Below are positions 4,655 through 30,499 of a stretch of DNA of 64,000 nt, piece after piece (within the stretch, counting starts at the first letter, position 1; each line of letters begins with the position of its first letter). The notes below the pieces were generated by a model, which did not search any database, was not told the origin of the DNA, and worked only from the letters and a program-made list of their open reading frames with translations. A program made the translations under genes and the position numbers. Source of the stretch: Actinomycetota bacterium (GTDB lineage: Bacteria > Actinomycetota > UBA4738 > HRBIN12); the NCBI GenBank assembly GCA_040902745.1, contig JBBDWR010000014.1:6374-70373 (forward strand). The letters run 5' to 3'.

Positions 4655-4835
4655 CCCGTTCCCCCTCCGCTCGTTGTTCCGTTCCGTCCCCGAACGGCCG
4701 GATGATTACAGGGTCGGCCGCCGAAAGTCCAGGCAGTGTTCGGAGAACGAGTCCTTGAGCGGAAGAACCCATCCACGCACGGAGGAACGCTCCAGGCTCG
4801 ACCCGCGACGGGCTCGACGGTAGGCTTCCACACCC

Positions 4836-7829
4836 ATGCCCGAGGTCCCCCGCTCACCGGAGTCCGCCTTTCCGCCCGAGCCGCCGGAGTTCGACCCTCG
4901 ACACCACGGGTTGGTGGACCAGATCCCTGCCGTGACCTACGTGATGCCACCCGGATGGCCCGAGCATCCGTGCGTCTACATCAGCCCACAGCTCGAAACG
5001 CTGCTCGGCTACTCCCCCGAGGAGTGGATGGACGACGCCGAGATCTGGCTACGGGCACTACATCCGGACGACCGCGAGCGTGTCGTCTCAGTCAGCAGGA
5101 GTGTCGACGAAACGCACGAGCCCTGGGACATGGAGTACCGGCTGCGCCGTCGCGGAAACGACGAGGTCTGGGTATGGGTCCACGACCGCGCGACGAACCT
5201 GCGTGATCGGTCCGGCACGCAGATGTGGCACGGCGTCCTGATCGATATCACGCAACGCAAGCACATCCAGGAAGCATTGCGCGCATCCGAGGACAAGTAC
5301 CGGACGCTGGTGGAGCAGATCCCCGCAGTCGTGTACGTCACCACCAACTCGCCGCAACCCGAGTCCATGTTCCTCTCGCCCCAGGTCGAACAGCTCACGG
5401 GCTACAGCGTCGAGGAGCTCACCTCAAGCGAAGGGGAGGGTGGCATCTACCACCGGCGGATCCTCACCGAGGACCTGGAGAAGATCTCCGGTACCTGGTT
5501 CGAAGCCGTGCAGGAGGAGCAGCCCTTCGAATGGGAGTACCGATTCCGGCGCAAGGACGGAAGGCTCGTGTGGCTGCGAGACCACTCCGTGCCGATCCCC
5601 AGTGTCGGCAAGAGCCCGGCGCTGCGCCAGGGAGCGATCTTCGACATCAGCGAGCAGAAGCGCCACCAGGACGCGCTGTACGAGAGCGACGAGCGCTACC
5701 GCACGCTCGTGGAGCAGGTGCCCGCGATCGTGTATCTCGTCTCCAACGGAGAGCCACCCGAACTCGTCTACGTGAGTCCTTCCGTACGGACGATCACCGG
5801 CTTCGACGAGGAGGAACTGCGAGCCGACCCGCGATTGTGGCTCTCGCGCGTGCCACGCGACGCCTTCGACGCCACCTCGGAGCGATGGACCGCCGCGGTG
5901 CAACAGCAGAAACCGTTGGAGCACGAGTACCCGTTCCTTCGCAAAGACGGCCTGCGCATCTGGCTGAAGGATCGCAGCGTTCCGCTGCGCGACGCCGACG
6001 GCAACGTCCGCTACCGGCAGGGCATCACACTCGACGTATCGGATCGCGTGAGACGCGAACAGCAACTGCGTGAGTCCGAGTCGATGTACCGGGCGCTCGT
6101 GGAGAACATCCCCGCCGTCGTCTACATCATCGCGCCCGACGGCGACGGCTCCACGCTGTACGTGAGCCCCCACGTGGAGCGTCTGCTCGGCTATACGCGC
6201 GACGAGTGGCTCGACCAGCCGGACATCTGGATGGAGCTGCTGCATCCCGACGACCGCGAGCGCGTCCTCGACGCCTACGACCGCGCGAACGAATCCGGTG
6301 GGGTGTGGAGCGGCGAGTACCGCCTGATCGCCGACGACGGGCGCGTCGTGTGGTTCCGAGACGACGCGACGCTGGTGCGCGATAGCGCCGGCAACCCGCA
6401 GTTCTGGCAGGGCGTACGCCTCGATATCACCGTGCAGAAGCAGGCGCAGGAGGACCTGCGCACTGCCCGGGACGACCTGGATGTGCGCGTTCGGGAACGC
6501 ACGGCGATGCTGGAAGAAGCGAACGAGATGATGATGCTCGAGATCGCCGAACGGAAGTCGACCGAGCAGCAACTGCGACGCGCCGAAGAGAAGTACCGCG
6601 GACTCGTCGAGCAGATCCCCGGCGCCGTCGCCTACCTCTGGGAGGTGGATGACTCCGGGACGTTCACTGAGGCCTACACCAGCCCTGCGATCGAACACCT
6701 CCTCGGGTACACGGTGCACGAGTGGCACGAGGGTGAGTTCTGGCGGAGCCGTGTGCATCCCGACGACTACGAAGCGATGAAGGAGGCGACCCGCCGCTCT
6801 GAGCGCGACGGGGAGGCGTTCGATCAAGAGGTGCGCTACCTCCACAAGGACGGGAAGGTCGTCTGGGTGCACGAGAAGGCGGCGCTCATGGAGCGCGGGC
6901 CCGACGGCAGACCGAAGCTGTTCAATGCCGTGATGCTCGACATCACCGCGCGCAAGGAGGTCGAGACGAGGATCCGTGCGGCCGAGGACCGACATCGCGT
7001 GGTGCTCGAGCAGATCCCCGGGGCGGTCGCCTACGTGTGGGAGACCAGCGACGGGAAAGGGAGTCGCTCGTTCGACTACACGAGTCCACAGATCTCCGAC
7101 GTCCTCGGCTATACACCCGCGGAGTGGCGGTCTCGATCGACCTTCTGGACCGACCGCGTGCATCCGGACGATCGCGACCGGGTGTGGGACGCCACCGTCC
7201 GCTGCGAGGAGACGGGTGAACCTTTCGCGATGGAGTACCGCTACCTCGCCAAGGACGGCCGGGTGGTGTGGGTTCGCGATCAGGCAGTGCTCGTCGAGCG
7301 CTCACTCGAAGGGGCGCCGTGGATCTTCCAAGGCGTGTTCTTCGACATCACCGAGCGCATGCAGTACGAACGTCAGATCAAAGACGCGGAGAAGCGGTAT
7401 CGGACGCTGGTCGAACAGCTCCCGGCGATCGTGTACGTCGAAGCCGTCGATCACACCGACAGCACGGCGAGTCGCATCGTGTTCGTGAGTCCACAGGTCG
7501 AGGAGGTGCTCGGCTACAGCGCGGAGGAACTGATCACGGAACCCAACCACATGCAGCGGATCATCCATCCGGACGACTACCCCGGATTCCTCGAGGAGGA
7601 CCGCAGGTCTGGCCGCACAGGGACCCCGTTCTCCTTCGAGTACCGCGCGATCGCCAAGGACGGTTCGACCGTGTGGCTGCACAGCCGGGCGGCCCTTGTG
7701 CGCGATGAAGAGGGTCGCCCGAGATTCTGGCACGGGCTTGCCCTGGACGTGACCCATCTGCACCCGGAGCCGGCGCCGGCAGATAGCGCGGGGGGCGCTC
7801 GCGAGATCGAGGGCTCCGACCAGGCCTGA
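4836..7829 (+). CDS. multi-PAS/PAC sensor-domain protein (about 8 tandem PAS domains, no recognisable output domain)
   Basis: 997-aa ORF. Repeated ~125-aa units each begin with a YRTLVEQIPAVVYV-like motif and end with a W..G(V/I).DIT PAC-like motif. No HisKA/HATPase, GGDEF, EAL or HTH domain at either end. Confidence 0.8.
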   Translation: MPEVPRSPESAFPPEPPEFDPRHHGLVDQIPAVTYVMPPGWPEHPCVYISPQLETLLGYSPEEWMDDAEIWLRALHPDDRERVVSVSRSVDETHEPWDMEYRLRRRGNDEVWVWVHDRATNLRDRSGTQMWHGVLIDITQRKHIQEALRASEDKYRTLVEQIPAVVYVTTNSPQPESMFLSPQVEQLTGYSVEELTSSEGEGGIYHRRILTEDLEKISGTWFEAVQEEQPFEWEYRFRRKDGRLVWLRDHSVPIPSVGKSPALRQGAIFDISEQKRHQDALYESDERYRTLVEQVPAIVYLVSNGEPPELVYVSPSVRTITGFDEEELRADPRLWLSRVPRDAFDATSERWTAAVQQQKPLEHEYPFLRKDGLRIWLKDRSVPLRDADGNVRYRQGITLDVSDRVRREQQLRESESMYRALVENIPAVVYIIAPDGDGSTLYVSPHVERLLGYTRDEWLDQPDIWMELLHPDDRERVLDAYDRANESGGVWSGEYRLIADDGRVVWFRDDATLVRDSAGNPQFWQGVRLDITVQKQAQEDLRTARDDLDVRVRERTAMLEEANEMMMLEIAERKSTEQQLRRAEEKYRGLVEQIPGAVAYLWEVDDSGTFTEAYTSPAIEHLLGYTVHEWHEGEFWRSRVHPDDYEAMKEATRRSERDGEAFDQEVRYLHKDGKVVWVHEKAALMERGPDGRPKLFNAVMLDITARKEVETRIRAAEDRHRVVLEQIPGAVAYVWETSDGKGSRSFDYTSPQISDVLGYTPAEWRSRSTFWTDRVHPDDRDRVWDATVRCEETGEPFAMEYRYLAKDGRVVWVRDQAVLVERSLEGAPWIFQGVFFDITERMQYERQIKDAEKRYRTLVEQLPAIVYVEAVDHTDSTASRIVFVSPQVEEVLGYSAEELITEPNHMQRIIHPDDYPGFLEEDRRSGRTGTPFSFEYRAIAKDGSTVWLHSRAALVRDEEGRPRFWHGLALDVTHLHPEPAPADSAGGAREIEGSDQA
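5280..7760. repeat. diverged tandem array of ~375-nt PAS-encoding repeat units inside the multi-PAS gene
   Basis: Recurrent nucleotide motifs such as taccg(g/c)acgct(g/c)gtggagcagatccccgc...gtgtacgtc recur at roughly 375-nt spacing, mirroring the protein repeats. Confidence 0.6.
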
Positions 7830-7994
7830 GCTTCCAGCGGCCCCCCGGCCCTCGTGCCTGTAGTCGCGCCTCGCACCTGCTCCTAGCGACACCCGCAGCC
7901 GGAAGTCGGTATCGCCCGCTACCTGAGATTAGGTAGAACTGCCCATCTACCCGGCTTCGGGTACTGCCGATTACCGAAATAGGAGGAGTGGACC

Positions 7995-8591
7995 ATGGCA
8001 ACGACGGCAGCGGCACTGACGGGGTTCACCCCCCGGGCACACGCGCGGCACAGGCTCGCAGCACGCGTGGCCTTGTCGGCGCTGGTCGTCGCCGTTCTCG
8101 GACCACTCGCCGTGATGAACCTGGCCGCCGCGATGGACCCATCCTCGACCGGTGGAGGCCAGGGATTTGCCCAGGAGCGATCGATCGTCGCGTCCTCCAG
8201 CGGAGCGCTGTCATTCGATGCTGCGGCACCGGGTGCGACCGCGACCGAATACGTGACGGTACGCACGCCGGTCTCGAGCCCGGGCGTCGAACTGTCCGCG
8301 ACCGTCACCGGTACGGGCCTCGATCGATCGATCCAGATCCGCATCGTTCGCGGTTCCGGACGAGGGACGGCGTTTAGTCCCGACGTCACGGATCATTCGG
8401 ACCTGGGCCGGGGCGTGTTGTACGAAGGCACCCTCGCCGGGCTGGGAACCACCACGTTGGCCGACCCGTCCGCATCGTGGGCCCGGGACGAGGAGCACAC
8501 CTATCGGATCGTCGGCACACTCGACGACTCGAACGCCGCCCAGGGCCTGACCGCATCGGTCGATCTGGCCTGGGCCACTCGGCCCGACTGA
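7995..8591 (+). CDS. secreted hypothetical protein (signal peptide)
   Basis: 198-aa ORF preceded by a GGAGGAG RBS at 7981-7987. N-terminal basic region followed by a hydrophobic stretch (LSALVVAVLGPLAVMNLAAA). No recognisable catalytic motifs. Confidence 0.6.
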   Translation: MATTAAALTGFTPRAHARHRLAARVALSALVVAVLGPLAVMNLAAAMDPSSTGGGQGFAQERSIVASSSGALSFDAAAPGATATEYVTVRTPVSSPGVELSATVTGTGLDRSIQIRIVRGSGRGTAFSPDVTDHSDLGRGVLYEGTLAGLGTTTLADPSASWARDEEHTYRIVGTLDDSNAAQGLTASVDLAWATRPD

Positions 8592-8653
8592 ATCCCGGGG
8601 TCTTCGCTCGCTGTCGTCAGCGTGCGATCGGAGTGGTCTGCTACGGTCGGTCG

Positions 8654-9163
8654 ATGAGCAAGTCCCTGCTGGGAGACGCGTTCGCCCACCACGTGTGGGC
8701 GACGGTGCGATTGATCGACACGTGCCTCCCGTTCAGCTCGGAGCAGCTGGAGACATCCGTGCCCGGCACCTACGGTTCGATCCTCCAGACGCAGCGCCAC
8801 CTCGTCGGGGCCGACGCCTCGTACCTGTTCGTCGTGAGCGGAGAGCGCGTCCCTCAGATCGACGAGGACCACATGAGTCTGCAGGAACTTCGGGACACGA
8901 TGCAGGCGCACGACACCGCATGGTCGCAGCTCCTGGGAGAAGACCTCGATCCGGACGCCGTGTTGCAGCGGCGCCATGACGACGGATCGGTGACCCGCGC
9001 GCCGATGGGCATCCGGCTCGCGCAGGCGCTGCATCACGGAACCGATCATCGGAGCCAGATCTGCACCACGCTCACGACACTCGGGGTGCAACCCCCCGAC
9101 ATCGATGTGTGGGACTTCGGCTGGCAGGACGATCGCGTCGAAGAGGTTCCACCCTCGGCCTGA
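8654..9163 (+). CDS. DinB/YfiT-like (DinB_2) family protein
   Basis: ATG at 8654 gives MSKSLLGDAFAHHVWATVRLIDT...; His-rich four-helix-bundle signature typical of DinB-family metalloproteins. The longer 8477 start overlaps the upstream gene and lacks an RBS. Confidence 0.6.
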   Translation: MSKSLLGDAFAHHVWATVRLIDTCLPFSSEQLETSVPGTYGSILQTQRHLVGADASYLFVVSGERVPQIDEDHMSLQELRDTMQAHDTAWSQLLGEDLDPDAVLQRRHDDGSVTRAPMGIRLAQALHHGTDHRSQICTTLTTLGVQPPDIDVWDFGWQDDRVEEVPPSA

Positions 9164-9176
9164 CGCGGGCGGGGTC

Positions 9177-10448
9177 TCAGCGCTTCGGCGTAAGTTCGCG
9201 AGCCGATTCCGGCAACCACGGCCACAATGTTTCGGGCAGCGCGACGGACCCGTCGGCGCGCTGACCGTTCTCGAGCAGCGCGATCAGGGTGCGGCCCATG
9301 GCCGTGGCCGTGCCGTTGAGGGTGTGCAGCACCTCGACCGTTCCGTCGGCCCGGCGAACGCGCGTCTGGAGTCGCCGGGCCTGATAGTCCGTGCAGTTCG
9401 AACACGAGGTGAGTTCTCGGAACCGCTGCTGTCCAGGCAGCCATCCCTCGATGTCGTACTTCTTGGCCGCGGGCGCACCGAGATCCCCCACGGCGATGTT
9501 GACCACGCGATAGGGCAGGCCCAGGTTCGTGACGATCTTCTCCTCGATGCCGACCAGCCGTTCGTGCTCGTCCCACGACTGCTCGGGAGTCGTGAAACTG
9601 AACATCTCCACCTTGTCGAACTGGTGCACGCGGAACATCCCTCCCATGTCCTTGCCGTACGTGCCCGCCTCGCGGCGGAAACAGGTGGAGTACCCGGCGT
9701 AACGACGCGGGAGCTCGCTCTCGTCCAGGATCTCGCCCATATGAAGCGCGGCCAGCGGCACCTCGCTGGTCCCGACCAGATACAGGTCGTCTTCGCGCGT
9801 CTTGTACAGGCTCGCCTCGTCACCGGGGAGGAACCCCGTGCCGTACATCGCCTCCTCGCGGACCATCACCGGAGGGATCACCGGCAAGAAGCCCTCGGGC
9901 AGCAGGACGCCGAGAGCGTGCTGCACCAACGCGAACTGGACGAGCACGAGGTCACCCAGCAGGTACACGAAGCGAGATCCGGACGTTCGAACGGCGCGGT
10001 CGACGTCGAGCACGCCCAGCATCGTCCCCAGTTCGACATGGTCACGCGCCGCGAAGTCGAACGAGGGCGGCTCACCATGGGTTCGCACCGGCACGGAGTC
10101 GTCCTCGGTGAGCCCGTCGGGAGCACTCTCGTGCGGCAGGTTCGGCGTCTGTGCGAGGAGCGCCGTGAGTTGCGTCTGCACGTCGGCGAGTTCCGGTTCC
10201 TTCGCCTTGAGCGACGCGGACACCTCGGCCGCGCGAGAGATCAACACCTTCTTGTCTTCGCCCTCGGCGCCGCCGATCGCCTTGGACGCCTTGTTCTGCT
10301 CGGCGCGAAGGGCCTCGACCTCCGTGGTGAGCGCCCGTCGACGTTCGTCGAGCGTGAGCAGCTCGTCCACGGCGTCGGAAAGACCCCGGCGTGCGAGTGC
10401 GGAGCGGAACGTCTCGGGGTCGTCGCGGATCGCTTTCAGGTCCAGCAT
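9177..10448 (-). CDS. serS: serine--tRNA ligase
   Basis: 423-aa ORF with an N-terminal coiled-coil tRNA-binding arm and class II aaRS motifs (FRRE..G, GLPYRVV, GTATAMGRTL). Confidence 0.95.
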   Translation of the reverse strand: MLDLKAIRDDPETFRSALARRGLSDAVDELLTLDERRRALTTEVEALRAEQNKASKAIGGAEGEDKKVLISRAAEVSASLKAKEPELADVQTQLTALLAQTPNLPHESAPDGLTEDDSVPVRTHGEPPSFDFAARDHVELGTMLGVLDVDRAVRTSGSRFVYLLGDLVLVQFALVQHALGVLLPEGFLPVIPPVMVREEAMYGTGFLPGDEASLYKTREDDLYLVGTSEVPLAALHMGEILDESELPRRYAGYSTCFRREAGTYGKDMGGMFRVHQFDKVEMFSFTTPEQSWDEHERLVGIEEKIVTNLGLPYRVVNIAVGDLGAPAAKKYDIEGWLPGQQRFRELTSCSNCTDYQARRLQTRVRRADGTVEVLHTLNGTATAMGRTLIALLENGQRADGSVALPETLWPWLPESARELTPKR

Positions 10449-19682: not shown

Positions 19683-19769
<87 letters not shown>

Positions 19770-19921
19770 GAGTGGAACCGGAATGGTAACAGGGCACTTG
19801 TTGCCCATCGTGCCTGCTCCGGGGCATCGGGGAACACGTTGCTAGGATGTGCCGAACCCGGCCGGAGCCCGATCCGCCGAACCGGACCGGCACACGCGAT
19901 CCTGACCCCGGAGCAGTCCGC

Positions 19922-20671
19922 ATGGCCATCCTCCGAGACTTCGAACGCCGCCTCGAAGGCATCGTCGAGGGCTCGTTCGCGAAGGTGTTCCGCGGTGGTC
20001 TGCAACCCGTGGAACTCGCCAAGCGCGTCCTCAAGGAGATGGACTCAGGCAAGACCGTCGGCGTCCGCGAGATCTGGGCCCCCAACCGATTCGCCTTCAC
20101 CGTGTCCCAGGCGGATCACGAACGGTTCGCCAACGCCGAGGGGGCGCTCGTGGACGAGCTCCAGCAGGTATGCCGCGATCACGCGATCGAACGCCGCTGG
20201 GGTCTGCTCGGCCCGCCCGAAGTGACCTTCGAGGTCGATGAGGCGCTCGGCAAGGGTCGGTTCCGATGCGACGCCACGCTGGTCGAAGGAGCGGAGCGGC
20301 TGGAACCATGGAAGATGCAGGCGCCTGCTCCGACGGCTGCTCCCACCCCCACCCAGGGCACCGCGCTCGGTGATCCCAACGGACCTGTGGTGCTCGCCTT
20401 CATGGAGAACGGCGTCGCCGGACGCACGGTTCGCATCCAGAAGCCCAAGGTGACGATCGGCCGGCTCCCCGAATGTGACGTTGTCGTCTCGGATCCGGGC
20501 GCGTCGCGCCATCACGCCCAGATCGAGCAGCGTGACGGCGGCTACGTGCTCACCGACCTCGGTTCGACCAACGGAACGCTGGTGAACGATCAGCCCGTCA
20601 CCACCTATCGGATGCAACTGGGCGATCGCATCATGATCGGCGAGACCGTGCTCGAACTTCGGGAGGGCTGA
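19922..20671 (+). CDS. fhaA: FHA-domain protein FhaA (DUF3662 N-terminal domain + C-terminal FHA)
   Basis: N-terminus MAILRDFERRLEGIVEGSFAKVFRGGLQPVELAK is the conserved FhaA/DUF3662 start. The C-terminal FHA module has GR...D..V.D...SR.HA....G...L.DLGSTNGT. Confidence 0.85.
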   Translation: MAILRDFERRLEGIVEGSFAKVFRGGLQPVELAKRVLKEMDSGKTVGVREIWAPNRFAFTVSQADHERFANAEGALVDELQQVCRDHAIERRWGLLGPPEVTFEVDEALGKGRFRCDATLVEGAERLEPWKMQAPAPTAAPTPTQGTALGDPNGPVVLAFMENGVAGRTVRIQKPKVTIGRLPECDVVVSDPGASRHHAQIEQRDGGYVLTDLGSTNGTLVNDQPVTTYRMQLGDRIMIGETVLELREG

Positions 20672-20673
20672 GG

Positions 20674-21150
20674 GTGTCTCGGTTCGCGCTGACCATGTTG
20701 CAGATCGGCTTGCTCCTGCTGCTGTACCTGTTCATCTGGCGGATCGTCCGTGCCGTCGGCTCCGGGATGTCCGACCGTGCCACCAAGCCGGCCCCGGCCG
20801 TGCCCGCCGCTCCTAGCCCCGCCGCGGCGAAACCGCGTCGGCGCAAAGCGGCAGGCCCGCCGAGTTCGGTCATCGTGCGCACACAGCAGGGAAAGAAGGC
20901 GAGTACTCACAAGCTCGACGGTGACGACGTCGAGATCGGCCGCGCCGCGGGATGCGCGATCACGTTGGACGACACCTACGCATCACAATCACATGCACGG
21001 CTGTCGTATCGCGACGGCGCGTGGGCGATCCAAGACCTGGGCTCGACCAACGGGACGTTCCTCAACGAACGGCGTCTCGAAGGCACGAGCGAGGTCCGCG
21101 CCGGGGACCGCATCCGCATCGGCACCACGATCCTGGAGTTGCGCGCGTGA
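20674..21150 (+). CDS. fhaB: membrane-anchored FHA-domain protein FhaB
   Basis: GTG start after a GGAGGG RBS. N-terminal TM helix and a C-terminal FHA domain (GR...C.I.LDD...S..HARL...DGAW.IQDLGSTNGT). Confidence 0.8.
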   Translation: MSRFALTMLQIGLLLLLYLFIWRIVRAVGSGMSDRATKPAPAVPAAPSPAAAKPRRRKAAGPPSSVIVRTQQGKKASTHKLDGDDVEIGRAAGCAITLDDTYASQSHARLSYRDGAWAIQDLGSTNGTFLNERRLEGTSEVRAGDRIRIGTTILELRA

Positions 21151-22394
21151 AGGCGACCGTCGCGGCGGCGACCGACATCGGCAAGGTCCGCTCCGGCAAC
21201 GAGGACGCCTACCTCGTCGAGGTTCCCCTCATCGCGGTCGCCGATGGGATGGGCGGGCACCAAGGCGGTGAGGTCGCCTCGCACCTGGCCCTGGAGACGA
21301 TCGAAACGCTGTTCAAGCATCAGCGAGGAACGTTGGCCGAGCAGGTTGCCGAGGCGAACCACGCGGTGCACGAGCGCTCGCTGCGCGACGCATCCGTGTC
21401 GGGGATGGGGACCACCCTCACCGCTGCGGTCGCCGACGGCGATCGGCTGCGACTCGCACACGTCGGAGATTCCCGTGCCTACCTGGTTCGCGACGGAGAG
21501 CTGCGCTCGCTCACCGAAGATCACACGATGGTGCGGGAGATGGAACTGCGCGGCGAGCTGACCGCCGAAGAGGCGTCGGCCCATCCCCACCGCAGCGTTC
21601 TGACGCGCGCGATCGGGACCGATTCCGACGTCCGCGTCGACGAGGGCATCGTCGACCTCGTCGACGGCGACCGTCTGCTGCTGTGCACCGACGGCCTGAC
21701 GGGCATGGTCGACGACGACCGGATCCTCGCCGTGCTCCGCGACACACCCGACCCGTCCGATGCCGTTCGCATCCTGGTCCGCGAGGCCAACGAGAACGGG
21801 GGGGTCGACAACGTCACCGCCGTGATCGTCGACTTCTCCGGCGAACCCGGCAGAGCGGCGAGCGCCCCCGGACCGGCGACCGGCGCGACCCGCGTGTCCA
21901 CCTCGACGATGCCGGACCGGGGCCCGACGCCGCCTCCTCCCCCCGCCGGCGGGGCCAAGCGGCGGTCGTTCCCGCTGGGAAAGGTCGCGATCTGGGTCGG
22001 CGTGTTCGTCCTGGTCTTGGTGGTCGCCCTCGTTGGAACCCGTCTGTATCTCGACCGACAGTGGTACGTCGGCGTCGAAGGAGACAAGGTCGCGATCTTC
22101 CGCGGCGTTCCCTCCGAACTGCTCGGGTTCGATCTCTCGAGCCCGGCGGTGGTCACGCCGGTCACGGCGACGCAGGCGCAGCAACTGCAATTCTTCTCGG
22201 GTCTCGCGGAAGGGATCTCGGTCTCGGACCGCGCCGCGGCCGATGAGATCGTGCGCCAGATCGAACAAGACCTGGCAGAGCTCGAGCGCCAGCAGGAGCA
22301 GCAGGATGCAAACGGCACCAACGCCGGTGGCGGCAACCAGAACGGGGGCGGTGGCGGCGGGGGCGCCCAGCCCGACGCGAGGCCGGCACCGTGA
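21147..22394 (+). CDS. pstP: PP2C-family Ser/Thr phosphatase PstP with C-terminal TM segment
   Basis: GTG start overlaps the fhaB stop. PP2C motifs DIGKVRSGNEDAY, VADGMGGHQGGEVAS and DGD. A C-terminal TM helix is followed by a Gly/Gln-rich tail. Confidence 0.85.
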   Translation: MKATVAAATDIGKVRSGNEDAYLVEVPLIAVADGMGGHQGGEVASHLALETIETLFKHQRGTLAEQVAEANHAVHERSLRDASVSGMGTTLTAAVADGDRLRLAHVGDSRAYLVRDGELRSLTEDHTMVREMELRGELTAEEASAHPHRSVLTRAIGTDSDVRVDEGIVDLVDGDRLLLCTDGLTGMVDDDRILAVLRDTPDPSDAVRILVREANENGGVDNVTAVIVDFSGEPGRAASAPGPATGATRVSTSTMPDRGPTPPPPPAGGAKRRSFPLGKVAIWVGVFVLVLVVALVGTRLYLDRQWYVGVEGDKVAIFRGVPSELLGFDLSSPAVVTPVTATQAQQLQFFSGLAEGISVSDRAAADEIVRQIEQDLAELERQQEQQDANGTNAGGGNQNGGGGGGGAQPDARPAP

Positions 22395-23740
22395 GCAGGG
22401 TCGAGACCACCGAGGACCGCTGGCTCCGAGGTGTCCTGCCGCTACTGTCCGCGCTCGCCATCGCCCTCGGTGCGTACGTGCTCGTCGGACTGGGCAAGAA
22501 GGGGAAGTTCCCGGCGACACTGTCGTTGTACGGGGCGATCTTCATCGTCGGGTTCGCGGCGGCGTTCCTCGTGATCCGTCGGTACGCGCCCAAGACCGAC
22601 CCGGTGATGTTCCCGGTGGCAGGCGCGCTCGCCGGGATCGGGTTCGCCGTGATCTTCCGGCTCGACGGGAACCTCGCGGCCGAACAGAGCACGTGGCTGA
22701 TCGTCGGGCTCCTCGCGTTCTGCGCGACCCTGATCGTGGTGCGGGATCATCGTCAGCTCGACGCGTACACCTACACGATCGGGTTGATCGGCGTCGCGTT
22801 GCTGTTGCTGCCGATCGTGCCCGTGATCGGGCAGACGATCAACGGCGCCCGGCTGTGGGTACAGATCGGTCCGATCGGGTTCCAGCCCTCGGAGCTCGGC
22901 AAGGTCTTCATCGTCGTGTTCCTCGCCTCATACCTGTCGGCCAAGCGGGAGCTGCTGCGCGTCGGGACCGGCGGATGGGGTCCCCTGCGGCTGCCCCAAG
23001 CCCGACACCTCGGTCCCTTGCTGCTCGCGTGGGGCGCGTCCCTGATGATCCTGTTCGTCCAGAAGGACCTGGGCGCGTCGCTGCTCTACTTCGCGATCTT
23101 CGTCGTGATGCTGTGGGTCGCCACCGGCCGCCCCGCCTACCTGGTGATCGGCGTGCTTCTGTTCGCTGCCGGTGCGTGGCTCGGCTACCTCGCCTTCAGC
23201 CACGTGGAGACCCGCGTCGATCTATGGCTGCACGCGCTGGACCCGAGCATGCTGCGCGAGGGCGCGAGCCAGCTCGCCGAGGGCCAGTTCGCGATGGCGA
23301 GCGGCGGGATCCTCGGCAGCGGACTCGGACAGGGCGTTCCGTACCGGATCCCGTTCGCGGTAACCGACTTCATCTTCGCGGCCATCGGTGAGGAACTGGG
23401 GTTGCTCGGAACCACCGCGGTGCTGTTGCTGTTCGTCGCTCTCGTCGGGAGGGGATTGCAAACGGCGCTCCGTGCCACGGACGACTTCGGCAAGCTGCTC
23501 GCGACCGGGCTTGCGACGCTCGTCGGCCTTCAGGCGTTCGTGATCATCGGCGGCGTGACGCGGGTGATCCCGCTGACCGGGGTGACACTACCGTTCATGA
23601 GCTACGGCGGCTCGAGCTTGGTGAGCAACTTCATCATCCTCGCGTTGCTGGTGCGCGTCGCGTCCGGCCCCGCTCCACAACGCGGACCGCTGCGGGGGCC
23701 GCGTCGCGCGGGGATCGAGGAGGAACCCCCCGATGGATAG
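22391..23740 (+). CDS. rodA: SEDS-family peptidoglycan glycosyltransferase RodA/FtsW
   Basis: 449-aa polytopic membrane protein with the FtsW/RodA/SpoVE signature region (QPSELGK, FIFAAIGEELG..G, PFMSYGGSS). Confidence 0.85.
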   Translation: MSRVETTEDRWLRGVLPLLSALAIALGAYVLVGLGKKGKFPATLSLYGAIFIVGFAAAFLVIRRYAPKTDPVMFPVAGALAGIGFAVIFRLDGNLAAEQSTWLIVGLLAFCATLIVVRDHRQLDAYTYTIGLIGVALLLLPIVPVIGQTINGARLWVQIGPIGFQPSELGKVFIVVFLASYLSAKRELLRVGTGGWGPLRLPQARHLGPLLLAWGASLMILFVQKDLGASLLYFAIFVVMLWVATGRPAYLVIGVLLFAAGAWLGYLAFSHVETRVDLWLHALDPSMLREGASQLAEGQFAMASGGILGSGLGQGVPYRIPFAVTDFIFAAIGEELGLLGTTAVLLLFVALVGRGLQTALRATDDFGKLLATGLATLVGLQAFVIIGGVTRVIPLTGVTLPFMSYGGSSLVSNFIILALLVRVASGPAPQRGPLRGPRRAGIEEEPPDG

Positions 23741-25247
23741 CCAGATCCGCCGCCTCGCTGTGGGCCTGCTCGTGCTGCTCGTGATCCTGCTCTTCGGCGT
23801 CAACTACGTGCAGGTGTTCGCCGCCGACTCGATCGCCGACAACCCGGCCAACGCGTACCGCCAGTTCGTCGCCGAGTCGGAGGTCGATCGCGGGCGGATC
23901 CTCGCGAACGACGCGCAGACGCCGCTCGCGATCTCGCGCGAGACCAACGGGGAGTTCACCTACCAGCGCCGGTATCCGCGGGGTGAGCTGTATGCCCACC
24001 TCACCGGCTACTACTCCTTGTTCTTCGGTCGCACGGAGTTGGAGGGGTCGTTCAACGAGTACCTGTCGGGTGACGCGCCGGAACTGCTCCCCCAAACGCT
24101 CGGAGACTTCATCCAGGGCAACCCGAAACGCGGCGCGTCGATCGTCACCACGCTCGACCCGGATCTGCAGGAACTCGCGATGGACATCGTGGGCGGGATG
24201 AGGAACGGGGGCGCCATCGTGATGATGGAGCCCGACACCGGCAACGTCCTGGTCTCCGCCGCCAATCCGACCTTCGACCCGAACGCGCTCTCGACGCAGG
24301 ACTCGGAGGCGGCGGAGAAGGCGATCACCGCCCTCAACGACGACCCCGCCAAGCCGTTGCTGTCGCGAGCGAGCGACGAGTTGTACCCACCGGGATCGGT
24401 GTTCAAGATCGTCACGGCGGCGGCGGCACTCGAGAACGGCTACACACCGAGCAGCAGGATCCGAAATCCCCTCGACCTCACGTTGCCGCAGACCACGGAG
24501 ACGCTGGAGAACTTCGGCGGGTCACACTGCCTGGGCGGCGCATCCGAGATCACGCTCGCGCAAGCGTTCCAGATCTCGTGCAACGTCTCGTTCGGCACGC
24601 TCGGGCTCGAACTCGGACCCCGCAAGCTCGGGCGACAGGCGCAGGCGTTCGGCTTCTGTCTGTGGAACCCGCCCGGATCGTGCCTCACCGACACGGTTCC
24701 GTTCGACATCCCCTACACCGCCGGCCGCTACCCCGACACGGAGTACTTCGTGGACAACGAACCGCTGGTTGCGTTCTCCGGTATCGGGCAGGCCGACGTC
24801 GCCACGAACCCGATGTCGATGGCGATGGTCGCCTCGGCCGTCGCGAACGATGGGGTGTTGATGCGACCTCGCCTGGTTTCGGAGGTCCGGGACCCGCAGG
24901 GCCGCGCGATCGAACGGTTCGAACCGGATGAGGCCGGTGTCGCGGTATCGCCCGAGACCGCACAGGACCTCACCGACATGATGGTGAGCGTCGTGGAGCC
25001 GGGGGGCACGGGGACCGCGGCGGCGATCTCCGGGGTGAGCGTCGCGGGCAAGACCGGCACGGCGCAGACGCGCGAGGGGGCGTTTCCCCACGCGTGGTTC
25101 GTCTCGTTCGCCCCCGCCGAGGACCCGCAGGTTGCCGTTGCGGTTATCGTGCTCAACGGTGGCGACCTCGGGAACGAGGCGACCGGAGGGGCGATCTCGG
25201 CGCCGATCGCGAAGCAGATGATCGAAGCTGCGCTGGAGGGAGGGTAG
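23733..25247 (+). CDS. pbpA: class B penicillin-binding protein (PbpA-type transpeptidase)
   Basis: N-terminal TM, then a transpeptidase domain with SxxK (SVFK), SxN (SCN) and KTG (KTGTA) motifs. Confidence 0.85.
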   Translation: MDSQIRRLAVGLLVLLVILLFGVNYVQVFAADSIADNPANAYRQFVAESEVDRGRILANDAQTPLAISRETNGEFTYQRRYPRGELYAHLTGYYSLFFGRTELEGSFNEYLSGDAPELLPQTLGDFIQGNPKRGASIVTTLDPDLQELAMDIVGGMRNGGAIVMMEPDTGNVLVSAANPTFDPNALSTQDSEAAEKAITALNDDPAKPLLSRASDELYPPGSVFKIVTAAAALENGYTPSSRIRNPLDLTLPQTTETLENFGGSHCLGGASEITLAQAFQISCNVSFGTLGLELGPRKLGRQAQAFGFCLWNPPGSCLTDTVPFDIPYTAGRYPDTEYFVDNEPLVAFSGIGQADVATNPMSMAMVASAVANDGVLMRPRLVSEVRDPQGRAIERFEPDEAGVAVSPETAQDLTDMMVSVVEPGGTGTAAAISGVSVAGKTGTAQTREGAFPHAWFVSFAPAEDPQVAVAVIVLNGGDLGNEATGGAISAPIAKQMIEAALEGG

Positions 25248-27083
25248 ATGGCGAACGGCGACATGAGTTCTTCCGTGCTGAACGGGCGCTACTCCCTGGA
25301 GGCCCTGATCGGCGAGGGTGGGATGGCGAAGGTCTATCGCGCGACCGACCAGCAGCTCGACCGCACGGTCGCCGTCAAGATCCTCAAGCCCGAGTTCGCC
25401 AGCGACGACTCGTTCGTCGATCGGTTCCGCCGCGAGGCGCAGACCGCCGCGAAACTCAACCACCCCAACCTCGTCGGCGTCTACGACACGGGTGACGAGG
25501 GCAACATCCACTACATCGTCATGGAGCACATCCAGGGACGTACCCTGGCCGACTTCTTCGCAGGCGGTGGGCGACTGGCGCCGATGAAGGCGGTCCAGCT
25601 CGTGGAGCAGGTCGCCGGGGCGCTTTCGTACGCGCATCAGCAGGGGGTCGTGCACCGCGACATCAAGCCCGGCAACATCATGGTGACGCGCGAAGGTGAG
25701 GTGAAGGTCACCGACTTCGGCATCGCTCGGCTCATCACGACGCAGCACACGATCGCCCAGACGGCCGCGGTGCTCGGGACGGCGGCCTACCTCTCTCCGG
25801 AACAGGCTCGGGGCGAAGTCGTCGACGAGCGTTCCGACATCTACTCCTTGGGGTGCGTGCTGTACGAGTCGCTGGTCGGCAAGGCGCTGTTCGAGGGCGA
25901 CTCGCCGGTCGCGATCGCCTACAAGCACGTGAACGAGCAGCCGCCACCTCCGTCGTCGCTCAACGCCGACGTGAACCCCGACCTGGACGCGGTCGTGATG
26001 CGTGCGCTTTCCAAGAACCCCGTGAACCGCTACCAGACGGCCGACGACTTCCGCCATGACCTCGAGGCGCTTCGCAACGGCGGCCAGGTCTCCGCGACGC
26101 CACTGCTCGGTGCCGCTGCCGCCACCACGCAGGTGATCCGTCCCGGTGCGCCGGGGCCGACGACCTCGGTGCTGCCTCCCGAGGAGGAGGAGAACAACCG
26201 GCGGAAGTGGATCATCGGCATCATCGTCGGGGTGCTCCTGATCGGCGCCTTGATCGCCGGAGCGTGGTGGCTCGCGAGCTCGGTGCTCAGCGACGAAGGT
26301 GGGACGAAGAAGGCGATCCCGGAAGGGATCGTTGGCTCCACCGAGGAGGACGCAACGGGCGTCCTCACGGATGGAGGGTTCACGAACGTCTCTTCCAGGG
26401 CTGTTGACGACGTACCCGACGACGACTTCGAACCCGGTGACGTCTCCGCCGTGGATCCCGCAGAGGGCAAGGTCGTCCCGCTCGATCGCGAGATCGTTCT
26501 CACAGTGGTCCGGGAGCCCGGCGAGGAGGCCGTCCCGAGCGTCGCAGGTCTGAGCGGTGCTGAGGCCACAGCGCTGCTCGAGGGCGAGCCGTACTTCTTC
26601 ACGGTCCAGACGGTGGATCGATTCGACGAGGCGCCGGTAGGAACCGCCGTGCGCACCAACCCAGCGTCGGGCGAGTCACTCGCCCCGCAGTCCGAGATAA
26701 CGCTCGTGATCTCCAAGGGACCGGAGCAGGAGCCGTCCCCGGACCCGATCCTGCCCGTCGTGCCGAACGTCGTGTGCCGCCCCGAAGGCGCGGCCGTCAA
26801 CAAGCTCACGAAGAATTTCCAAGCAGAGTTCGCGGGCGAATCTGCTAATCCGTCGTGCCCGGGCCCGGGTCGCGTCTCCAAGCTGCAGCCTGTAGCCGAG
26901 TCGTCACTCGCAGAAGGGTCCGTGGTGCGGTACTGGCTCACGCCGGAGGAGCCAAGCCCGCCGTCCTCATCGAGGGAAGGGTCCAATGAGGGACCCGGAT
27001 CGGGCGACGACAATGGCAAGGGCAAGGGCCACGGGCCCAAGGAGCGGTCTGGTCCGCCGCGGCGTGTCGGCTCATCGAAGTAG
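25248..27083 (+). CDS. pknB: Ser/Thr protein kinase PknB with extracellular PASTA repeats
   Basis: Hanks kinase motifs GEGGMAKVY, VAVK, HRDIKPGNIM, DFG, SPEQ. A TM helix (WIIGIIVGVLLIGALIAGAWWL) is followed by PASTA-like repeats. It is the only kinase gene in the cluster. Confidence 0.9.
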   Translation: MANGDMSSSVLNGRYSLEALIGEGGMAKVYRATDQQLDRTVAVKILKPEFASDDSFVDRFRREAQTAAKLNHPNLVGVYDTGDEGNIHYIVMEHIQGRTLADFFAGGGRLAPMKAVQLVEQVAGALSYAHQQGVVHRDIKPGNIMVTREGEVKVTDFGIARLITTQHTIAQTAAVLGTAAYLSPEQARGEVVDERSDIYSLGCVLYESLVGKALFEGDSPVAIAYKHVNEQPPPPSSLNADVNPDLDAVVMRALSKNPVNRYQTADDFRHDLEALRNGGQVSATPLLGAAAATTQVIRPGAPGPTTSVLPPEEEENNRRKWIIGIIVGVLLIGALIAGAWWLASSVLSDEGGTKKAIPEGIVGSTEEDATGVLTDGGFTNVSSRAVDDVPDDDFEPGDVSAVDPAEGKVVPLDREIVLTVVREPGEEAVPSVAGLSGAEATALLEGEPYFFTVQTVDRFDEAPVGTAVRTNPASGESLAPQSEITLVISKGPEQEPSPDPILPVVPNVVCRPEGAAVNKLTKNFQAEFAGESANPSCPGPGRVSKLQPVAESSLAEGSVVRYWLTPEEPSPPSSSREGSNEGPGSGDDNGKGKGHGPKERSGPPRRVGSSK

Positions 27084-27093
27084 GCTGGACGCG

Positions 27094-28704
27094 ATGTCCC
27101 TCTGGTTCTCGCGCGAGGAGTTCTCCGACAGCGAGCGGGCCCTGCTGTCCCGGTACTTCTCTAATCTCGATCTGCCGGTCTTCGCGCTGATCAACATGCC
27201 GGAGGTCGTCAAGGGGGCACTGTTCGCCCGGTATTCCCGCACCCCGAAGTCTCTGCGGCGGCTGTTCCTCGACGAGTTCGCCGAACAGGTCGCATCGGGC
27301 AAGGCGCCGGAACCGACGATGGGCGAAGAACGCGCGGAGAAGCTGTTCGACCGCGTCTTCGTGGAATACGGCGACGACTCCGTCGCCCAGCTCGGTGGCG
27401 TCCACCTCGCCTGCGAGCAGGCTTCCCAGCTGCTGTGCAAACAGCTCGAGTGGGGCCGCCTGGCCGCGTACTTGGAGCAGTCGACGCGCTACATGCGCTA
27501 TGACGACAAACCGGGGGGGCGATGGCGCGTCACGATGCCGCCCGAACTCGAAGGTACTCCGCACGCAGCCTCGTTCTCCGCGTTCGTCGACCTCGCGCTC
27601 GAAACCTACGGGCGGCTCTTCGAGCCGATGCAACAGTGGTACCGCGAGCGCTTCCCGCAGGAGGCGACCGACTCCGACTTCGTCTATCGCTCGACGATCC
27701 AAGCCAAGACCTGCGACACGCTGCGCGGCCTGCTCCCGGCGGCGACTCGATCCAACCTCGGGATCTACGCCACGGGACAGGCCTACGAGCAGCTCCTCCT
27801 TCGTCTGCGCGCACACCCGCTGCAGGAGATGCGCGAGTACGGCGACCTGATGCTGACCGAGCTGCGCACGGTGATCCCGGCGTTCCTCAAGCGCGTCGAC
27901 GTCGAGGATCGCGGCGTGGCGTGGTCGCGCTACCTGGCCGATCGCCGCGAGGCCACCCAGGAGATCGCCGCGAAGTTCCTCGAAGGTGTGGAGGTGGCCG
28001 ATCGCGAGGAGGTCACACTCGTCGACTCCGATCCCGACGGCGAGGTCAAGGTCGTCGCCGCGGCCCTGTACGCGTCCAGCGAACTGCCGGACGATCGTCT
28101 GCACGAACTCGCGCGATCGATGACCGTCGACGAGCGCAGCGCCGTGCTCACGGCCTATGTCGGCGAGCGGAGCAACCGGCGCCACAAGCCGGGCAGAGCT
28201 TTCGAACGCACCGGCTACCGATTCGACGTGCTCTGCGACTACGGCGCCTTCCGCGACCTACAGCGTCACCGCCTGCTCACGGTGGAATGGCAGCACCTGA
28301 CGACGACCCACGGGTACGAGCTGCCGGCCGACATCGAACGCGCGGGATTCTCCGGGGACGCCCGCGAGGTGCTCGAGCGCTCCGCGAACCTCGAACGCGA
28401 GCTGCGGGCGGCAGGCTTCGGAGACGCGGCACAGTACGCCGTCTCGCTCCAATACCGGATCCGGTTCGTGCTCCAGATGAACGCCAGAGAGGCGATGCAC
28501 CTGGCCGAGCTGCGGAGCGCGCCCCAAGGCCACCCCGTGTACCGCCGGGTCGCTCAACGGATCCACGAGCTGATCGCCGACCAGGCAGGGCACCGAGCGA
28601 TCGCAGCCGCGATGCAGCACGTCGACCACTCCGACGTGGACCTCGAACGTCTCGACGCCGAGCGCCGAACCGAAGCCAAACGCCGGGCGGTCGCGGACTC
28701 CTAA
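27094..28704 (+). CDS. tandem-duplicated ThyX-fold protein (FAD-dependent thymidylate synthase-like, two fused Thy1 domains with diverged motifs)
   Basis: ATG at 27094. Both halves align to the ThyX core. Against the canonical RHR-IASYNELSGRYS motif, half 1 has WGR-LAAYLEQSTRYM and half 2 has RHR-LLTVEWQ. Each half also has an LP..TR...NAR..L..L.LR....Q.E block. Confidence 0.6.
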   Translation: MSLWFSREEFSDSERALLSRYFSNLDLPVFALINMPEVVKGALFARYSRTPKSLRRLFLDEFAEQVASGKAPEPTMGEERAEKLFDRVFVEYGDDSVAQLGGVHLACEQASQLLCKQLEWGRLAAYLEQSTRYMRYDDKPGGRWRVTMPPELEGTPHAASFSAFVDLALETYGRLFEPMQQWYRERFPQEATDSDFVYRSTIQAKTCDTLRGLLPAATRSNLGIYATGQAYEQLLLRLRAHPLQEMREYGDLMLTELRTVIPAFLKRVDVEDRGVAWSRYLADRREATQEIAAKFLEGVEVADREEVTLVDSDPDGEVKVVAAALYASSELPDDRLHELARSMTVDERSAVLTAYVGERSNRRHKPGRAFERTGYRFDVLCDYGAFRDLQRHRLLTVEWQHLTTTHGYELPADIERAGFSGDAREVLERSANLERELRAAGFGDAAQYAVSLQYRIRFVLQMNAREAMHLAELRSAPQGHPVYRRVAQRIHELIADQAGHRAIAAAMQHVDHSDVDLERLDAERRTEAKRRAVADS

Positions 28705-29206
28705 CCGGCTACGGCCCGCGGAAGCCGCGCACGATCTTGGCGGCCTCGTCCTCGTGCCGCACCGGCACCGTGAAGCGGAACGGGCCTTCGTAGCCGGGCA
28801 GGCCCGGGCTGCCTCCTTAGGCCTTGCGCTCGGCGACCGTGCGAGCCGGCGAACCGACCGCAGCAGCTCGGGCCACCCCCCGCAGGATCGGGGCCGACGA
28901 GCGCGATGCCGAGCAGGGTTGCGACGGTGGTGGGCACGTGCGTATCCAACCACGCTGGGAGCGATCATCGGCGCCCGGACCGTGAGGGCGAGAGCGGGAA
29001 GGTTTGCCGTAAGCTGTGCGAACTCCGATGGACCGTCAATCCACCTTCTTGCTGGCCATGGCCATGCTGATCGCCGCCGGGGCCGCCGTTTCGGCGGCCG
29101 GGTGGACCCTGTTCGTCCGCGACCGGCGCTCCCACCGGCCCGCCGCCGCGACCGCCGGAGTACCCACTCCCGACGCGACCCATCACGAGGCTTCAGAGGA
29201 GCGGTA

Positions 29207-30499
29207 ATGCTCGAGCTCCTCGACCTCCGCGAGCGGAGGGAGCGCCTCGAGCCTCGACGTCTCGAGCCGGACCCTGCCGTCACCGAACCCGTGAGGGAAC
29301 TGATCTCGCGCGTCCGCAGCGAGGGCGACGACGCCCTCGTCGAGCTCGCCTTGCGATTCGATGGAGCGGACCTGGGCGCGACCGGCCTGCTCGCGACGCC
29401 GGACGAGTTCGAACGCGCCCAGGCACAGCTTCCCGCGCAGCTGCGTGATGCGATCGATGCGCTGATCGATCGCATCATCGATCTGCACCGCCGCCAGCTC
29501 CCGCACCAATGGTCGGACGAGCGAGACGGGACGAGGTTCGGCGAGATCGTGCGCCCGCTGCGCGCGGCGGGCTGCTACGTGCCCGGCGGGAGAGCGGAGT
29601 ACCCCTCTTCGGTCGCGATGACGGTCGTCCCGGCAGTCGTGGCCGGGGTCGAGGAGATCGTCGTCTGCACCCCAGGTCGAACCGACGGCGCCCTACCGCC
29701 CACGGTGTTGTACGCCGCGTTCCGGGCGGGAGCTACGCGCGTGGTCAAGACCGGCGGGGCGCAGGCGGTCGCCGCGATGGCGTTCGGCACCGACAGCGTG
29801 CCCGCGGTCGACCGGATCGTCGGACCGGGTAACGCCTACGTGACGGAGGCGAAACGTCAGGTCGCCGGGTTCGTGGGCATCGACGGCCTCGCCGGCCCCA
29901 GCGAACTGACGGTGGTGGCCGACGCCGCGGCGGATCCGGTGTTGATCGCGATCGACCTGATCGCGCAGGCTGAACACGACCCCGAGGCAAGCACGAACCT
30001 CGTCACCACCGACCCGGCGCTCGTCGAGGCAGCAGCCGAGCGATTGACCGTCGAAGTCGTGCGAGCGGGGCGGCGGGAGATCGTGGAGCAGGCGCTGACC
30101 CACAACCGCGCCTACCTCGTCGCCGACCTGACCCAAGCCGCCGAGGTCGTCGACGACCTCGCGGCGGAGCACCTCCAATTACTGCTCGCCGACCCTCGGG
30201 CGTTCGTCGAAACGATCCGCAACGCTGGAGCGATCTTCTTGGGACCGTGGACGGCAGTGCCGTTCGGCGACTACGGGGTCGCATCCAACCACGTGCTCCC
30301 AACCGCCGGGACGGCGCGGTTCGCCTCGGGCCTGCGCGCGTCCGACTTCGTCACCGTCAGCTCCGTGATCGAGATGGAGCCCGCCGCAGTGCGTTCGCTG
30401 TCGCCCTCGGTGGTCGCGATCGCCGAGAGCGAAGGGCTCGTCGGCCACGCTCGGGCCGTCCGCGTGCGCGACGAACGCGCGATCGAGGAGGAGACATGA
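29207..30499 (+). CDS. hisD: histidinol dehydrogenase
   Basis: ATG at 29207. HisD core motifs (YVPGGRAEYPSSV, NAGAIFLGPW, E...NHVLPT). 430 aa. Confidence 0.9.
   Translation: MLELLDLRERRERLEPRRLEPDPAVTEPVRELISRVRSEGDDALVELALRFDGADLGATGLLATPDEFERAQAQLPAQLRDAIDALIDRIIDLHRRQLPHQWSDERDGTRFGEIVRPLRAAGCYVPGGRAEYPSSVAMTVVPAVVAGVEEIVVCTPGRTDGALPPTVLYAAFRAGATRVVKTGGAQAVAAMAFGTDSVPAVDRIVGPGNAYVTEAKRQVAGFVGIDGLAGPSELTVVADAAADPVLIAIDLIAQAEHDPEASTNLVTTDPALVEAAAERLTVEVVRAGRREIVEQALTHNRAYLVADLTQAAEVVDDLAAEHLQLLLADPRAFVETIRNAGAIFLGPWTAVPFGDYGVASNHVLPTAGTARFASGLRASDFVTVSSVIEMEPAAVRSLSPSVVAIAESEGLVGHARAVRVRDERAIEEET

Follow-up and report, generated by a model that had tools for sequence, protein, structure and literature searches.

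A gene in the window, by which is meant the whole 64-kb stretch of DNA analysed here, encodes a protein made of two ThyX repeats, and the motif that marks this thymidylate synthase is incomplete in both. Does such a protein make dTMP, how would active sites be assembled from two unequal halves, and does the location of the gene next to a protein kinase gene bear on its role? The two-domain thyX gene (27094..28704, stop codon included, on the plus strand, as are all the features described below) encodes 536 aa. The enclosing ORF spans positions 26986-28704 (+), and translation from an internal ATG at 27094 yields the 536-aa product. This ATG is taken as the real start, because the 536-aa product is identical to an NCBI entry (P0001, named "FAD-dependent thymidylate synthase"), and relatives of 533–537 aa cover 99–100% of it in alignment. 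No differences are seen among 29 close relatives at W120, G121, R122, E128-Y133 and R391-R393, a sign that the gene is under strong purifying selection. Scans for Rfam families and tRNAs around the gene revealed nothing relevant, and promoter-like or terminator-like sites were not found in a scan of the region 26800-29400.

The preliminary description had read the product as two fused ThyX repeats, and this is borne out by profile searches. Pfam PF02511 (Thy1) matches the protein in two stretches (E=1e-35), and each half matches solved ThyX structures. In comparisons of an 88-member family profile with solved structures, aa 72-264 were aligned with M. tuberculosis (Mtb) ThyX (3gwc; E=2.4e-14), and aa 367-503 with T. 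maritima (Tm) ThyX (E about 2e-6). The diverse 88-sequence profile was needed, as a profile made from the 29 close relatives reached only E=0.26 against PDB, and no ThyX chain was found in PDB by single-sequence phmmer. TIGR02170, the NCBIfam thyX equivalog, assigns the protein 49 bits, below the cutoff of 87.9; this score and the phmmer result place the two-domain class far from the characterised single-domain enzymes.

An AlphaFold2 monomer model built on the 88-sequence alignment confidently shows two ThyX domains (pLDDT 94.8, pTM 0.92); a shallow alignment had yielded a poor model (pLDDT 66), which was discarded. The N-terminal repeat (about aa 20-268; 27151..27897), the putative provider of the dUMP loop, was delimited by the family profile against 3gwc and by the secondary structure of the model. 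It is followed by a linker helix (aa 271-296; 27904..27981), modelled as a single helix, H271-296, with pLDDT >90, and by the C-terminal repeat (about aa 303-510; 28000..28623), the putative provider of the FAD site and the RHR motif, delimited by the family profile against T. maritima ThyX and by the model. The best 50 PDB matches of the model in Foldseek are all single-domain ThyX chains of about 210–245 residues, with TM-scores of 0.62–0.73 by target length and about 0.3 by query length, and no two-domain ThyX structure is found among these 50. Sequence likeness between the two repeats is weak (hhalign E=5.8e-4); the alignment is nevertheless collinear, and W120-G-R122 falls on R391-H-R393. 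The protein is a tandem-duplicated ThyX, with two ThyX folds in one chain.

The motifs of the two repeats are those first described. Repeat 1 reads W120-G121-R122-L-A-A125-Y-L-E128-Q-S130-T-R132-Y133, with Ala at the Ser position; repeat 2 reads R391-H392-R393-L-L-T396-V-E-W-Q-H-L (aa 391–402), with Thr at the Ser position and without SxRY. The motif RHR-x2-S-x-N-E-x-S-x-R-Y is complete only across both repeats, never within a single one. Residue conservation was counted in 88 diverse members of the family, 33–84% identical, and canonical positions were mapped through profile alignments.

Residues of the dUMP side are kept by the N repeat. The segment L127-E-Q-S130-T-R132-Y133 (27472..27492) corresponds to the dUMP-binding or lid loop (Tm E86, S88, R90 and Y91; roles as in PMC6514825), with E128 found in 87, S130 in 88, R132 in 87 and Y133 in 85 of the 88 sequences. 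R211 (27724..27726), equivalent to Tm R147 and Mtb R172 in the Mtb alignment, is conserved in all 88. The C repeat has no SxRY loop, and thus no counterparts of Tm S88, R90 and Y91; the position aligned to Tm E86 is occupied by W (45 sequences) or R (29), that of Tm R147 by Q in 63 of 88.

The FAD side is kept by the C repeat. The canonical FAD-binding motif R391-H392-R393 (28264..28272), corresponding to Tm R78, H79 and R80, is conserved in 88, 85 and 86 sequences, respectively. Its counterpart in repeat 1, W120-G121-R122 (27451..27459), is degenerate in the first (W29/D29/R24) and second (G41/S12/A10) position, the third being R in 87 of 88. The segment N463-A-R465-...-L473-R474 (28480..28515) supplies the equivalents of Tm N163, R165, L173 and R174, involved in FAD and uracil binding (N in 83, R in 87, L in 85, R in 87 of 88). 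Corresponding positions of the N repeat are relaxed to S37/N31/T18 (Tm N163), Q59/R26 (Tm R165) and R44/K27 (Tm R174). Similarly, Tm R74 is matched by R387 in the C repeat (84/88), and by K (77) or R (6) in the N repeat. The FAD residues R78, H79, R80, N163 and R165 and the uracil-binding R174 (Tm numbering) are hence present in the C repeat in 83–88 sequences, residues E86, S88, R90, Y91 and R147 in the N repeat in 85–88, and all the canonical dUMP and FAD contact residues occur once per chain, nearly invariant. As judged from these alignments, the split is clean over the 88 members, the N repeat keeping the dUMP-loop set with most of the FAD-side set relaxed, the C repeat the reverse.

Two additional motifs lie at the place of a canonical loop. 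In the N repeat, the nearly invariant G93-D94-D95-S96 (27370..27381; D 85/88, S 87/88) falls, in the Mtb alignment, at the H-x-S/T loop (Mtb H69..S71). In the C repeat, the basic motif N361-R-R-H364-K-P-G-R368 (28174..28197), specific to this class, replaces, in the Tm alignment, the H-G-H-x-T/S loop (Tm H51..T55). R368 is conserved in 87, P366 in 78 and H364 in 66 of the 88 sequences, and the Chlamydia form of the motif is NRRHKSPR.

The protein had been regarded as unusual, but it has a great many relatives. Significant matches in a word-indexed search fall in at least 8000 clusters at 90% identity, the best 120 of which are all 530–557 aa long. An exhaustive search of representatives identified 984 clusters at 50% identity (E<=1e-30), with full-length matches to about 35% identity, and two signature peptides retrieved at least 597 confirmed relatives in genomes of GTDB species. 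The groups listed for the latter include Actinomycetota (Acidimicrobiia, Microthrixaceae), Acidobacteriota, Rokubacteria, Binatia, Dormibacterota, Gemmatimonadales and Chloroflexota; cluster names extend the range of the class to Woesebacteria, Chlamydiota and Verrucomicrobia. Members are marked by a length of about 510–560 aa, two Thy1 stretches, the motif LE-x-x-R...LE[QK]S[TS]RY, and then NRRHK-x-x-R and RDL[QH]RHR, all of which are found in the window protein. The same split signature was observed in members from Chlamydiota, CPR, Verrucomicrobia and Acidimicrobiia. One of the clusters, headed by sequence P0285, is named "FAD-dependent thymidylate synthase [Chlamydia trachomatis]" and "UPF0159 protein TC_0921". 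An approximate C. trachomatis sequence served as bait in the search for Chlamydia members, and the argument rests on the database sequence P0285 and its cluster.

By its sequence, the window gene thus belongs to a very common, known class that includes the studied Chlamydia enzyme. It is an ordinary housekeeping gene, and public annotation names it correctly. The idea that orthologues might prove to be common and already characterised two-domain enzymes with normal motifs holds in its first part only, their motifs being as non-canonical as those described above. Annotation of the class is inconsistent, as some members are named 'UPF0159' in UniRef, the C. muridarum and C. pneumoniae ThyX entries among those bearing the name 'UPF0159 protein', and TIGR02170 misses the class.

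How the halves may be put together is suggested by the canonical enzymes. Reviews present ThyX as a homotetramer whose four sites are identical (PMC4913046, PMC6514825). In Mtb ThyX each active site draws on three subunits: the RHR motif and R199 of subunit A contact FAD phosphates and ribityl, and uracil; S71 and R190 of subunit B contact FAD phosphates; S105, R107 and Y108 of subunit C hold dUMP and cover flavin N5 (PMC6514825). Translated into Tm numbering, one subunit contributes RHR and R174, a second the S/T55 loop and R165, and a third the S88-x-R90-Y91 loop, which keeps dUMP above the flavin. The halves of the fused protein specialised after duplication and fusion, the C repeat retaining all the FAD-side residues, the N repeat only the dUMP-loop residues and the R147 equivalent. 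Two fused chains would dimerise to form a pseudo-tetramer, in which the two C repeats would pair around a two-fold axis, each binding one FAD, and each N repeat would lend its dUMP loop to one C repeat. Each of the four sites of a D2 tetramer is formed by three subunits, in the combinations (A,B,C), (B,A,D), (C,D,A) and (D,C,B). With the C repeats in positions A and B, and the N repeats in positions C and D, exactly two sites would be complete and two degenerate, and each 60-kDa chain would carry one FAD. The earlier proposal, by which some but not all of the four canonical sites would be complete, fits the conservation observed across the 88 sequences.

We therefore favour, with a probability of about 0.78, a housekeeping tandem ThyX of the Chlamydia type, which would carry out the normal conversion of dUMP, CH2-H4folate and NADPH to dTMP through specialised halves, in a two-site pseudo-tetramer. 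We infer that this particular protein is catalytically active, that it assembles as a dimer, and how many of its sites are live; the assembly and the two-site count derive from symmetry reasoning. No description of the two-domain architecture was found in the literature searched, which comprised sources other than Griffin 2005 (JBC) and Leduc 2004 (PNAS).

A different arrangement of the same parts is possible. S96 of the N repeat aligns with Mtb S71 and is S in 87 of 88 sequences; given this invariance, the N repeat might take the second role, and supply the helper residues for the FAD phosphates. The number of live sites would also be two. That N463 and R465 of the C repeat are invariant speaks for the arrangement in which the C repeats are paired.

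Within this favoured arrangement, R122 and G93-D-D-S96 would face the 'dead' sites and yet are invariant, which is not explained by simple decay. Nearly invariant across phyla are R122, G93-D-D-S96 and K116 in the N repeat, and N361-RRHKPGR368 and Q400 in the C repeat. Since such residues either would face the degenerate sites or replace the canonical His53 loop, the degenerate sites could have been kept as ligand sites of a second kind, binding for instance a regulatory nucleotide, NADPH or the folate tail. We put this forward as a tentative and rather unlikely addition. Were it true, the class would consist of ThyX enzymes that are asymmetric by nature, and whose reduction or regulation follows a mechanism unlike that of the homotetramers.

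The location of the gene had been pointed out as a further peculiarity. The upstream neighbour is indeed pknB (25248..27083), which encodes a kinase with PASTA domains (Pfam Pkinase and PASTA), and the gap between its stop codon and the thyX start measures 10 nt. The two genes are probably co-transcribed. The thyX gene closes a classical fhaA-fhaB-pstP-rodA-pbpA-pknB cluster, and is followed by hisD-hisC. The order pbpA-pknB-thyX was found in 12 of 81 loci, all from the closest clade (63–70% identity). Adjacency to pknB is missing at the other 69 loci, including those of other Actinomycetota (Acidimicrobiia, Microthrixaceae), and thus reflects the gene order of one lineage, in which an operon was probably extended. 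The position is hence peculiar to one clade rather than a property of the family, and a meaningful link between the two genes is not supported.

Co-regulation of thyX with the PknB and cell-wall growth module, or its phospho-regulation by PknB, would be in line with the short gap and with the lack of promoter-like or terminator-like sites between the two genes, as with the conservation of the whole fhaA-fhaB-pstP-rodA-pbpA-pknB-thyX order in the 12 related loci, in one of which (L001) pknB and thyX overlap by 4 nt. Against such a link stands the rarity of the adjacency itself. Moreover, clustering of the neighbours at the 81 loci revealed no other neighbour conserved family-wide, and no partner tied to nucleotide or folate metabolism; co-transcription in one clade, in addition, is no proof of regulation by phosphorylation. 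We consider the link improbable.

A different chemistry, also raised by the preliminary description, is less probable still. The protein could have the ThyX fold and (hydroxy)methylate another pyrimidine nucleotide, as PolB does, or be a flavin enzyme unrelated to dTMP. The lack of a complete ThyX motif in either repeat, the TIGR02170 score, and the loss of the canonical His53 loop, in place of which repeat 1 has GDDS and repeat 2 NRRHKPGR, could be read in this way, as could the presence of 4p5a, presumably the structure of PolB, among the weak profile matches (E=0.014). True ThyX is, however, matched far more strongly, and the near-invariance of a full set of canonical dUMP and FAD contacts in each chain would be hard to reconcile with another reaction. 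The genomic context is that of a housekeeping gene (a cell-wall/kinase cluster and the his operon), and no biosynthetic cluster is present. Natural fusions of the two-domain class are telling: thymidylate kinase is fused to members P0189, P0193 and P0217, dUTPase to P0208, and the fused members carry the same split motifs. Thymidylate kinase acts directly after, and dUTPase directly before, thymidylate synthase, and fusions to these two enzymes make a different chemistry unlikely. The Chlamydia orthologue, which shares the split motifs, is the sole thymidylate synthase candidate in those genomes, and has been assayed as ThyX. Taken with the fusions, this leaves the different chemistry a very small chance.

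It is hardly credible that the gene encodes a pseudo-enzyme, as an inactive or decaying paralogue kept while a working thyA or single-domain thyX lies at another place in the genome. Neither repeat conforms to the canonical motif, but the deviating positions are themselves the same in all 29 close relatives, the complementary residues are conserved in sequences down to 33% identity, and Chlamydia has no ThyX other than one of this design. Neither thyA or folA nor a second thyX was found in the 64-kb window by tblastn with approximate sequences of E. coli ThyA and FolA and T. maritima ThyX as queries.

In itself the window gene matters little, being one of thousands of orthologues of a class with a studied Chlamydia member. 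The wider value is modest, and lies in the class, widespread in Actinomycetota, Acidobacteriota, candidate phyla and Chlamydiota. Its conservation pattern predicts just two complete sites, and a diverged folate/NADPH side, as opposed to the four identical sites depicted in reviews. The lack of a solved two-domain structure among the best 50 Foldseek matches in PDB is relevant to the design of ThyX inhibitors against Chlamydia.

Three known systems are best compared with the window protein. The most distant is PolB, the ThyX-like UMP C5-methylase of polyoxin biosynthesis. PDB entry 4p5a, presumably PolB, is labelled only 'Thymidylate synthase ThyX' in the search table; it is a single-domain chain of 239 residues with a ThyX fold, and matches the C repeat much more weakly than Mtb ThyX matches the N repeat. 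The window protein is not closer to PolB than to ThyX, and its gene is surrounded by cell-wall/kinase and his genes, a nucleoside-antibiotic cluster not being found around it.

The canonical single-domain, homotetrameric ThyX enzymes of T. maritima (TM0449) and M. tuberculosis (Rv2754c) share their fold with each half of the window protein, and their FAD- and dUMP-contacting residues are all found in it, when both halves are summed. In contrast to these enzymes, the window protein has two diverged copies in one chain, and a replaced His53 loop; for every four domains it is predicted to form two complete sites, not four.

The closest system is C. trachomatis ThyX, which we take to be CT632. This protein (P0285, 529 aa) is of similar length, features two Thy1 stretches, and is collinear with the window protein over the full length (523 of 536 residues aligned, 38% identity, E=4e-107). 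It comes from a different phylum and a different genomic context. It carries LE-D-A-R...LEKSSRY in repeat 1, and NRRHKSPR and RDLQRHR in repeat 2, the same split motifs as the window protein. Positions 120-121, D-A in Chlamydia and W-G in the window protein, vary across the family. The C. trachomatis thyX gene has been cloned and expressed, and its product assayed for ThyX activity (PMC3498832); a catalytic study of the enzyme is cited in PMC2386288 as Griffin et al. 2005. Chlamydia have ThyX, and lack ThyA and Tdk (PMC4913046 Table 1; PMC5954106).

Immediately preceding thyX on the plus strand is the complete fhaA-fhaB-pstP-rodA-pbpA-pknB cluster (window 19847-27083). Its counterpart in L001, a related locus of the closest clade with the same pknB-thyX order, spans positions 3081-10004, with a 4-nt overlap between pknB and thyX. 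Among the 81 loci compared, thyX is added onto the fhaA-to-pknB cluster only in the clade of the window gene. Across the window, Rfam and tRNA scans detected a single RNA gene, a tRNA-Leu(CAG) on the minus strand at 19683-19769.

Downstream, thyX and hisD are separated by a gap of about 500 nt (28705-29206), in which Rfam, tRNA, promoter-like and terminator-like scans found nothing. The long ORF listed for hisD (28754-30499) is over-extended at its N-terminus, as is typical in high-GC DNA. The equivalent position in L001 (11615-16144) hosts three minus-strand genes, one of which encodes an ATP-dependent DNA ligase.

Additional domains were found at the N-terminus of some two-domain ThyX proteins, here denoted by representatives of clusters at 50% identity. 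A thymidylate kinase domain is carried by P0189, P0193 and P0217 (764-781 aa; three clusters), a dUTPase domain by P0208 (703 aa; one cluster). The Tmk-ThyX and dUTPase-ThyX chains are natural fusions of consecutive enzymes of the dTMP pathway. P0193 is encoded by three contigs in the NCBI, Logan and ENA collections. Other members feature about 100-220 extra terminal residues, located at the C-terminus in P0126 (717 aa), and at the N-terminus in P0183 (729 aa), P0152 (640 aa) and P0198 (667 aa). No Pfam match was found in these four extensions; members of the P0183 cluster occur on up to 12 contigs.

Database naming of the two-domain class is inconsistent. Chlamydia orthologues are called 'UPF0159 protein' in UniRef, FAD-dependent thymidylate synthase at NCBI, and the window protein, the sole class member scanned, falls below the cutoff of the NCBIfam thyX equivalog model. 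Some taxon labels look doubtful as well. Loci L026, L028 and L054 are assigned to Bifidobacteriaceae or Bifidobacterium breve MAGs, and L059 to a Burkholderiales MAG; their two-domain ThyX proteins, 57-60% identical to the window protein, resemble those of Acidimicrobiia. Mis-binning may be the source of these labels.

Two nearly invariant, class-specific motifs, both encoded on the plus strand, mark the two-domain proteins: GDDS in repeat 1 (window 27370-27381) and NRRHKPGR in repeat 2 (28174-28197). In single-domain ThyX, a canonical His-containing loop stacks on folate or NADPH; in the two-domain class, this loop is replaced by GDDS in the first repeat, and by NRRHKPGR in the second.
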